Assembly: GCA_964535385.1 (NCBI GenBank)
Contig: CAZHSY010000008.1
Span: 6,474-30,473, forward strand
Direction: 5' to 3'
Source of the DNA: an uncultured Candidatus Saccharibacteria bacterium
Lineage (GTDB): Bacteria; Patescibacteriota; Saccharimonadia; CAILAD01; GCA-016700035
DNA length: 24,000 nt
In this document: positions 11,586-11,636 of the stretch, piece after piece
How positions within the stretch are numbered: the stretch's first letter is position 1
How the letters are laid out: the number at the start of each line of letters is the position of its first letter
Notes under the pieces: generated by a model
What the model saw: the letters and a program-made list of their open reading frames with translations, nothing else
Database searches by the model: none
What the model was told of the DNA's origin: nothing
Translations under genes and position numbers: made by a program

Positions 11586-11636
11586 GCAGTTTCGTCCTTT
11601 TGGACTCATCAGCGAGGACATACATCCTCGGACTGC
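11586..11636 (-). ncRNA. hammerhead ribozyme, type III topology
   Basis: Minus strand: GCAGUC | CGAGGA-UGUAUG-UCCUCG CUGAUGA GUCC-AAAA-GGAC GAA ACUGC. The parts are stem III GCAGU/ACUGC, the GUC cleavage triplet, stem I hairpin (6 bp), core CUGAUGA, stem II (4 bp with G10.1-C11.1) and core GAA. Every invariant core nucleotide is present. Confidence 0.88.

Follow-up and report, generated by a model that had tools for sequence, protein, structure and literature searches.

The stretch of DNA analyzed here (the window; 24,000 nt) carries large genes for LeuRS, a Mur ligase, RNase III, a NUDIX protein, NusB, and SMC, and the nearest LeuRS genes are those of Candidatus Saccharibacteria MAGs (64% identity). 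On the minus strand, LeuRS and a TrmB-like regulator are followed by a perfect promoter, ~370 nt of noncoding sequence, and a terminator. A second promoter then precedes ORF115, ORF66, a 181-nt 3' untranslated region (3' UTR), a hairpin, a hammerhead ribozyme, and ~1,020 nt without coding signal, beyond which lie ORF99, tmRNA, and, farther away, L32, NusB, NUDIX, and RNase III. The features flanking the ribozyme are the following.

12513 to 12541, minus strand: sigma-70-like promoter, TTGACA-17-TACACT with TG (a consensus match), the sole predicted same-strand promoter from there to ssrA.
12066 to 12413, minus strand: ORF115, with a positive coding score; a small acidic protein, clade specific and without known family.
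11818 to 12018, minus strand: ORF66, with a positive coding score; a conserved small protein.
11638 to 11673, minus strand: stable hairpin CCC.GUCUGGGGCAGG / CCUGCU.CUCAGA.GGG (dG, -26 kcal/mol), separated from stem III of the ribozyme by a 1-nt gap.
10263 to 10562, minus strand: ORF99, with a positive coding score; a conserved small protein whose reading frame stops 10 nt short of tmRNA.
9899 to 10253, minus strand: tmRNA (ssrA; 118.8 bits), followed by a GC hairpin.

The locus is a stable chromosomal site of one Saccharibacteria clade, not a prophage. A prophage or island context was considered and rejected: with Pfam and PHROGs, the neighboring genes were recognized as housekeeping genes, and phage hallmark genes and an integrase were absent. 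BLAST searches of GenBank phages with the 3.4-kb region and with the ribozyme returned no similar DNA, and no viral relatives of ORF66 and ORF99 were found in IMG/VR. The nearest reference genomes (L004, L005, and L015; L numbers are labels of the fetched comparison loci or contigs) lack the ~6 kb that separates LeuRS from NusB here, and in them LeuRS leads directly to NusB. Since the clade of the window has retained the whole block, a recent insertion can be dismissed. Homologues of ORF115 in relatives (90 to 109 aa) share its C-terminal motif GH.DGH.CA..P.PGY, and the syntenic ones have 29 to 58% local identity in partial alignments. As a query for relatives, ORF115 behaved as an orphan, and ORF99 and ORF66 served instead. 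The ~370-nt RNA upstream of ORF115 aligned poorly across lineages.

The ribozyme had been recognized in a first-pass annotation, which placed it about 180 nt downstream of ORF66; it begins 181 nt past the ORF66 stop codon. The minus-strand sequence given there, GCAGUC CGAGGA UGUAUG UCCUCG CUGAUGA GUCC AAAA GGAC GAA ACUGC, is identical to positions 11636 to 11586. Its parts are as follows.

11586 to 11636, minus strand: type III hammerhead ribozyme, as identified by RF00008, the minimum free energy (MFE) fold, class models, and ortholog covariation.
11636 to 11632 with 11590 to 11586, minus strand: stem III, 5 bp, open.
11631, minus strand: C17 of the cleavage triplet GUC.
11630 to 11625 with 11618 to 11613, minus strand: stem I, 6 bp.
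11624 to 11619, minus strand: loop 1, UGUAUG.
11612 to 11606, minus strand: core CUGAUGA (C3 to A9).
11605 to 11602 with 11597 to 11594, minus strand: stem II, 4 bp, with loop 2 AAAA; G10.1-C11.1 is G11605-C11594.
11593 to 11591, minus strand: GAA (G12, A13, and A14), followed by the A15.1-U16.1 pair (A11590 with U11632).

All structural claims of the annotation hold (type III topology, invariant core positions, the G10.1-C11.1 and A15.1-U16.1 pairs, and the GUC triplet), and the cleavage that it predicted between 11631 and 11630 agrees in position with the parse. Three helices surround the core, helices I and II being closed by loops and helix III open, and nucleotide 17 is C rather than G, in keeping with the NUH triplet rule. 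Rfam Hammerhead_3 (RF00008) matched positions 11584 to 11638 of the minus strand over the full model length with 48.7 bits (E = 4.4e-8), a marginal 0.2 bits above the gathering score of 48.5; in the window, the hammerhead and tmRNA were the only Rfam families found. Two class models, R1 (mixed training set) and R2 (phage hammerheads alone), scored the element at 69.9 and 67.7 bits, respectively, with E ~6e-17 for R2. CTGATGA occurs 9 times in the window (~4 expected) and lies in a hammerhead context in a single copy, as had been stated. By sequence and predicted fold, this is a true type III hammerhead ribozyme, and its catalytic activity is almost certain.

Folding with 126 nt gave the upstream hairpin together with the complete three-helix hammerhead (MFE, -52.4 kcal/mol; z = -4.3). 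When the transcript was truncated to 91 nt, a local hairpin, CUGCUCUC/GGGAGCAG, was favored instead, which would hide the 5' strand of stem III. We rejected this competing hairpin as a truncation artifact, because the longer context yields the extended hairpin and an intact hammerhead. The MFE fold of two orthologs (L208 and L213) pairs an upstream CAUC with GAUG of the core, a hint of alternative folds. Both observations could be taken to favor a regulated ribozyme, in which an alternative fold or a bound factor would set the ratio of upstream mRNA to downstream RNA. However, the first structure vanishes with the full upstream sequence, the second is not kept in the window, the hammerhead carries neither a ligand-binding domain nor an additional conserved element, and the class to which it belongs has minimal, closed stems I and II. 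We therefore consider conditional cleavage to be very improbable.

Hammerheads of the same type are abundant in phages. A pattern in which loops and core were fixed (TGT-N9-CTGAYGAG-N3-AAAA-N3-CGAAA) matched at least 120 IMG/VR viral contigs. Among the 122 matches listed, 121 had a perfect 6-bp stem I and 4-bp stem II, and 116 had a stem III of 4 to 6 bp. The class architecture consists of a 6-bp stem I with a UGUGUR loop, a 4-bp stem II with an AAAA loop, and a hairpin 5' of stem III. In an alignment of 88 sequences from the matches listed, 94.5% of cells were paired and 512 cells were changed on both sides, compared with 152 in shuffles and 29 to 88 in slid controls; within the phage class, covariation was seen in all three stems (matches listed). 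The A15.1-U16.1 pair was invariant in 88/88 class members (phage members among the matches listed) and in 7/7 orthologs. The loops of the window copy, UGUAUG and AAAA, agree with the class consensus UGUGUR and AAAA, which for the phage members is imposed by the search pattern; in orthologs found by synteny, the loops read UG.RUR and (G/A)AAA or UAUAA.

In phages, the hammerheads lie between same-strand ORFs, a median of 29 nt past the stop codon and 23 nt before the next start codon, and several may occur per operon (161 matches in 100 loci, with up to 5 to 6 on one strand of a contig; all among the matches listed). No particular gene family could be tied to the class: PHROGs searches with 66 upstream and 80 downstream ORFs gave scattered matches, mostly of unknown function. 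Such diverse, mostly unknown flanking ORFs agree with earlier surveys (PMC3088659 and PMC6155905). One IMG/VR contig carrying this class (L154) is only 377 nt long and possibly viroid-like.

The hairpin next to stem III proved to be a general feature of this very large phage class. It is GC rich and located directly 5' of stem III: a hairpin with a dG of -10 kcal/mol or lower was present in 59/90 phage members versus 8/89 controls, and 45 of the 59 abutted stem III without a gap (matches listed). Equivalent hairpins were seen in L208 and L213 (-22 kcal/mol, with a 1- to 2-nt gap). In papers on bacterial and phage hammerheads, we found no description of a hairpin abutting the ribozyme, and the recurring hairpin-plus-hammerhead module is, after the downstream RNA described below, the second lead for novelty. 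Phage members scored 35.7 to 78.2 bits with the mixed model R1 (matches listed). The window copy fits the phage-only model and has the class-type hairpin, and on these grounds it is a member of the large phage-borne class, here as a fixed chromosomal element of one Saccharibacteria clade. It departs from the class in spacing (181 nt after ORF66 and ~1,020 nt before ORF99) and in location, having LeuRS, the TrmB-like regulator, ssrA, L32, NusB, and RNase III as neighbors in place of a phage or prophage.

To follow the element across Saccharibacteria, relatives were collected via contigs encoding homologues of ORF99 or ORF66 (62 to 84% identity). This yielded seven lineages (the window, L208/L212, L213, L225, L214 to L217, L218 to L220, and L221 to L224). 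Contigs from other samples (L001 to L003 and L204 to L207) matched the window at 99.9 to 100% identity wherever they aligned and for this reason added no comparative information. The order TrmB-like gene, ORF90 to ORF115, ORF66, and hammerhead was found in 7/7 lineages, and the hammerhead was located 130 to 260 nt past the ORF66 homologue in all of them. Twelve hammerhead loci outside the model training set scored 59 to 72 bits. In Rfam, most orthologs, several of them equally canonical, fell just under the gathering threshold (46 bits in L214), so that Rfam-based annotation under-calls this Saccharibacteria clade, the threshold missing most of its orthologs. In the literature, where hammerheads are known across bacteria, we found no papers tying them to Saccharibacteria or Patescibacteria.

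The hammerhead was the locally best-conserved element. Identity to the window copy was 84 to 96% for the ribozyme, 72 to 81% for the adjacent coding gene ORF66, 55 to 77% for the 3' UTR, and 35 to 65% for the next 150 nt downstream. Core and stem II were invariant among the seven lineages, and changes occurred in loops or were compensated in stems I and III: stem I CGAGGA/UCCUCG is replaced by CUGGAG/CUCCAG in L221, and U-A to C-G and C-G to U-A exchanges were found in stem III. Altogether, 7 base pairs were altered on both sides among the orthologs, versus 0 to 3 in slid controls. Conservation of the ribozyme above that of its surroundings is thus a signature of purifying selection on the fold.

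These data bear on two alternative explanations. If the motif were an inert passenger, i.e., a remnant of phage or mobile DNA without a role for the cell, one would point to the overwhelmingly phage-borne class, its sporadic occurrence in Saccharibacteria (it was absent from 78 other LeuRS-linked loci, comprising 1.3 Mb), and the situation in a more distant Saccharibacterium (L009). The latter has three further copies of the class, one after a 117-aa ORF and before rpsP and two in a 689-nt cassette (promoter, ORF, hairpin, and hammerhead) that has been duplicated in tandem. However, retention at one syntenic site in seven lineages, conservation exceeding that of the neighboring coding gene, compensatory substitutions in stems I and III around an invariant core, and flanking genes without relatives on viral contigs or similar DNA in GenBank phages all argue against a passenger, which we regard as improbable. 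The second explanation, that the motif matches by chance or belongs to a circular, viroid-like RNA, for which two cleavage sites would be required, could draw on the Rfam score barely over threshold and on the short contig of the class mentioned above. The first-pass annotation had called a chance origin very unlikely, and the E values (4e-8 with Rfam and ~1e-16 with the class models), recurrence at the same syntenic site in relatives, and covariation among orthologs bear this out. No second self-cleaving motif was found in positions 8000 to 13200 even at E <= 1, and neither the hammerhead descriptor nor models R1 and R2 revealed another ribozyme from which a circular or excised RNA could arise; with a single such motif, no excised unit is defined. 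Either form of this explanation is exceedingly unlikely.

Downstream of the ribozyme, the DNA appears to specify a long structured RNA, subdivided as follows.

10563 to 11583, minus strand: ORF-free stretch from the hammerhead to ORF99, without coding signal in any frame and with strong predicted structure.
11420 to 11583, minus strand: region A, ~165 nt immediately past the hammerhead, conserved with L208, L212, L213, L214, and L221.
10629 to 11027, minus strand: region C, a structured noncoding domain of ~400 nt, homologous with L209, L210, and L221/L224.

From 11817 to 10563 no frame had a positive coding score, unlike ORF115, ORF66, and ORF99. The 984 nt past the hammerhead (10600 to 11583) folded with -406 kcal/mol, compared with -343 ± 9 kcal/mol for shuffled sequences (z = -6.7). 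Region A contains a long helix, CUUCCAGCGCGG / CCGCGCUGGGAG. In region C, 31 pairs were altered on both sides versus 3 to 7 in slid controls, and 90% of cells were paired (four sequences). The downstream structured RNA postulated in the first-pass annotation was thereby upheld, with ~400 nt of covariation-supported structure. At E <= 1, neither the window nor L214 gave an Rfam match for the long RNA. In the L214 group, the hammerhead is followed by 1,358 ORF-free nt up to tmRNA (fold z scores, -5.5 and -7.4). Most relatives have a lipoprotein-like gene (110 to 132 aa) between the hammerhead and ORF99, which is missing in the window. A decayed copy of this gene as the origin of the ORF-free stretch was rejected, tblastn with the relatives' lipoprotein-like proteins having found nothing in the window. 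Because downstream content varies in this manner between lineages, the hammerhead is tied to ORF66 and not to a particular downstream product: on the syntenic comparison, ORF66 is its invariant partner, whereas the long structured RNA and ssrA are frequent neighbors but not obligatory ones. The ribozyme had also been described as part of an ssrA-linked block. In the window, tmRNA does lie downstream, but the link is not obligatory, and in the L218 group tmRNA was not found near the hammerhead locus.

From the ORF115 promoter to ssrA, a crude consensus scan of the window predicted neither a same-strand sigma-70-like promoter nor a terminator. For L214, none was predicted from the ORF90 promoter to tmRNA except for one weak terminator-like hairpin in region A (6637 to 6655), and none was predicted in L208 up to the contig end in ORF98. 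Promoters preceding the ORF115 homologue matched the consensus at 11/12 positions in L214 and at 10/12 in L208 (consensus matches only). Because no intervening promoter or convincing terminator is predicted, we infer one primary transcript, with the caveat that these scans are crude consensus matches and that ssrA or ORF99 may have their own promoters. The earlier proposal that the hammerhead parts the ORF115/ORF66 mRNA from the downstream RNA is compatible with the lack of predicted promoters and terminators and with a folded, noncoding downstream stretch.

The following course of events can be envisaged. Transcription from the promoter at 12541 to 12513 would proceed through ORF115, ORF66, and the 181-nt 3' UTR into the hammerhead, which would fold cotranscriptionally and cut between C11631 and C11630. 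The upstream product would be a bicistronic ORF115-ORF66 mRNA ending in the hairpin at 11673 to 11638, a 7-nt tail, and a 2',3'-cyclic phosphate, and such a 3' end (hairpin and cyclic phosphate) should slow 3' exonucleases. The downstream product would retain the ribozyme body, with its 5'-OH buried in stem I, and would continue into ~1 kb of structured noncoding RNA (ncRNA) and then ORF99 and ssrA, from which tmRNA would be released by RNase P. By these steps, from promoter to cleavage and two products, the hammerhead would act as a constitutive transcript-separating element. In effect, it would stand in for a terminator and a promoter combined, so that each half has its own ends, stability, and folding. 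Overall, the locus is probably best explained by an active hammerhead of the phage class whose constitutive cleavage sets the ORF115-ORF66 mRNA apart from the structured RNA, ORF99, and ssrA.

The main rival assigns the opposite fate to the downstream product. In Bacillus subtilis, a 5'-OH end is a substrate of RNase J1, as with glmS, whose 5'-OH cleavage products are degraded by this enzyme; cleavage could therefore destabilize rather than protect the downstream RNA. The hammerhead might then trigger termination or insulation, 5'-3' decay of the 5'-OH product by an RNase J-type enzyme serving as a terminator substitute that stops readthrough from ORF115-ORF66. That no intrinsic terminator is predicted after ORF66 would suit such a role, as would the hairpin without a U-tract in front of the hammerhead, which resembles a terminator stem with the release step exchanged for cleavage. 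On the other hand, strong structure in the 1 kb downstream, with covariation conserving part of it, would be unexpected for RNA destined to be degraded, the new 5' end is base paired in stem I, and neither ORF99 nor ssrA has a predicted promoter of its own. Moreover, the phage hammerheads lie ~23 nt before the next start codon (matches listed), and the downstream RNA is therefore evidently used in phages. With the conserved downstream structure arguing against it, termination is an unlikely explanation, and separation of two transcripts with fates of their own remains our preferred one.

As a tentative extension of the preferred reading, which we consider possible, if rather doubtful in its full form, the hammerhead may set the 5' end of an undescribed large (~1- to 1.4-kb) structured Saccharibacteria ncRNA. 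This RNA would be part of a long primary transcript with small-protein genes and, in some lineages, tmRNA; the ribozyme would liberate its 5' end, and RNase P would cut at its border with tmRNA. If true, an epibiont with a reduced genome would possess a large ncRNA processed by a ribozyme, and this chromosomal locus would offer a natural example in which the products of a bacterial hammerhead reveal its role. The downstream structured RNA is, in any event, a more novel lead than the ribozyme itself.

The putative downstream RNA invites comparison with GOLLD, ROOL, HEARO, and OLE, which are large structured bacterial ncRNAs often encoded beside tRNA genes. It is similarly long (1 to 1.4 kb), ORF free, and structured, and in two lineages it lies beside the tRNA-like ssrA. 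In contrast to these families, it has no Rfam match at E <= 1, its length and content vary between lineages, and covariation supports ~400 nt of it (in four sequences).

Among hammerheads with assigned functions, that of sTRSV processes the multimers of rolling-circle replication, whereas RiboJ is an engineered insulator, the cleavage of which gives the downstream RNA a defined 5' end independent of the upstream context. The window hammerhead resembles both in its type III topology, in a stem I of 6 bp capped by a UGUG-type loop, and in the GUCC/GGAC pairing of stem II, and differs in loop 2 (AAAA or GAAA here versus GUGA in sTRSV/RiboJ). By analogy, we propose a RiboJ-like role here, namely, the provision of a defined 5' end for the downstream RNA. 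Relative to RF00008, the window copy is full length, with all core nucleotides, capped stems I and II, an open stem III, and GUC, and scores only at the gathering threshold. Like glmS and the twister ribozymes in bacterial 3' UTRs, it would cleave itself within an mRNA and alter the fate of the flanking RNA (reviewed in PMC6765202). However, glmS is ligand dependent and located in a 5' UTR, while the window hammerhead has no ligand domain and an unrelated fold.

Bacterial hammerheads have been catalogued since 2010 to 2011, but what they do in the cell continues to be called an open question (PMC6155905 and PMC6765202), one reason being that most copies reside in variable prophage DNA beside unrelated genes. 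They flank small nonconserved ORFs, and processing of polycistronic RNA has been proposed (PMC3088659, PMC6155905, and PMC6765202). This idea is hence not new (PMC3088659 and PMC6765202); what would be specific here is the architecture. A chromosomal, syntenic hammerhead that is better conserved than the adjacent coding gene, and that has ORF66 upstream, a hairpin of protective appearance, and a long predicted structured RNA downstream as partners, is useful in this respect, as it leads to testable predictions on RNA ends and stabilities, and members of the Saccharibacteria have recently become genetically tractable (PMC10633639). As in the prokaryotic and phage hammerheads described previously (Perreault et al. 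2011, PMC3088659; de la Pena et al. 2017, PMC6155905), the element lies between small unknown genes on the coding strand, but without integrase or phage genes and instead beside LeuRS, ssrA, L32, and NusB. The chromosomal, nonphage setting and the loose spacing to neighboring genes are its departures from the phage subclass: the Saccharibacteria hammerheads lie 130 to 260 nt past the upstream ORF rather than ~29 nt, and the window copy is followed by ~1 kb of predicted structured ncRNA, not by a start codon ~23 nt away.

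The ORF-free structured region that lies between the hammerhead and ORF99 on the minus strand (window 10563-11583) contains a non-coding domain of ~400 nt, region C, which is shared with the related loci L209, L224, and L210.

Window 10629-11027, minus strand: region C
L209 2-401: region C
L224 1847-2251: region C
L210 68-278: region C

The structure of this domain was supported by covariation from four lineages, and some of its helices had three different sequences in three lineages with pairing kept in all of them. An Rfam search with region C returned no family. In the neighborhood equivalent to window 10563-11583, relatives encode a lipoprotein-like protein of 110 to 132 aa with a signal peptide plus Cys and a conserved C-terminal IKIPARC-type motif.

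L208 9517-9849: lipoprotein-like ORF
L210 837-1205: lipoprotein-like ORF
L218 3185-3583: lipoprotein-like ORF
L221 5411-5764: lipoprotein-like ORF
L214 8330-8662: lipoprotein-like ORF

Comparison at 10563-11583 revealed no trace of this gene in the window.

A ~70-nt module, composed of a GC hairpin followed by CCAACCAGAG..., lies directly downstream of the tmRNA and is repeated farther on; it resembles the terminal 3' portion of the structured region.

Window ~10630-10690, minus strand: 3' end of the structured region
Window 9827-9897, minus strand: module copy after the tmRNA
Window 9031-9101, minus strand: second copy, 800 bp beyond (82% identity)

Further copies were found in L209 and L224, and by eye a similar sequence was present in L214. 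Between the two copies that come after the tmRNA lies a segment of ~800 bp that is absent from locus L211. For the tmRNA itself (window 9899-10253, minus strand), ARAGORN predicted the tag peptide DSAWRPVA*, which differs from the alternative candidate read by eye from the Rfam-aligned resume-codon/tag part (GCA CCA CCA AUA AUC GCC GCC UAA, i.e., APPIIAA*).

A further candidate RNA was located upstream of ORF115, where a consensus promoter and a terminator-like element delimit a stretch of ~370 nt lacking coding signal.

Window 13126-13098, minus strand: predicted sigma-70 promoter (12/12 consensus match)
Window ~12775-12725, minus strand: GC hairpin plus T-run, predicted terminator

An equivalent promoter-terminator pair occupies the syntenic position in the relatives L214 and L208, and the motif ACCCGARAGGGGAA is common to the window interval and relatives. 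No Rfam family matched window 12720-13126 (minus strand), which we consider a candidate unclassified small RNA. The LeuRS gene (window 14589-17477, minus strand) encodes a NUDIX hydrolase domain at residues 379 to 501, inserted after the editing domain, an architecture also present in L002, L208, and L214.

Most canonical orthologs of the window hammerhead (L214, L208, L213, L218, and L221) fell below the Rfam gathering threshold of 48.5 bits, as exemplified by L214 (6455-6509; 46.0 bits, E = 4e-8); among the Saccharibacteria orthologs, only the window and L225 were at or above it. Within 2 kb, the more distant Saccharibacterium L009 carries three hammerheads that also belong to this class.

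L009 16967-17023, plus strand: hammerhead
L009 18312-18366, minus strand: hammerhead
L009 19001-19055, minus strand: hammerhead

One is located between a 117-aa ORF and rpsP, and the other two sit in a 689-nt cassette that is duplicated in tandem and consists of a promoter, an ORF, a long hairpin, and a hammerhead; the two ORFs (132 and 137 aa) are paralogous. L154, a 377-nt IMG/VR "viral" contig containing a hammerhead of the class, might derive from a viroid-like or satellite RNA. In L106, L149, and other IMG/VR phage loci, hammerheads of this class form one-strand arrays spanning a few kilobases, with up to five or six among the matches listed; judged from sequence, such arrays are predicted to cut operons into near-monocistronic units.
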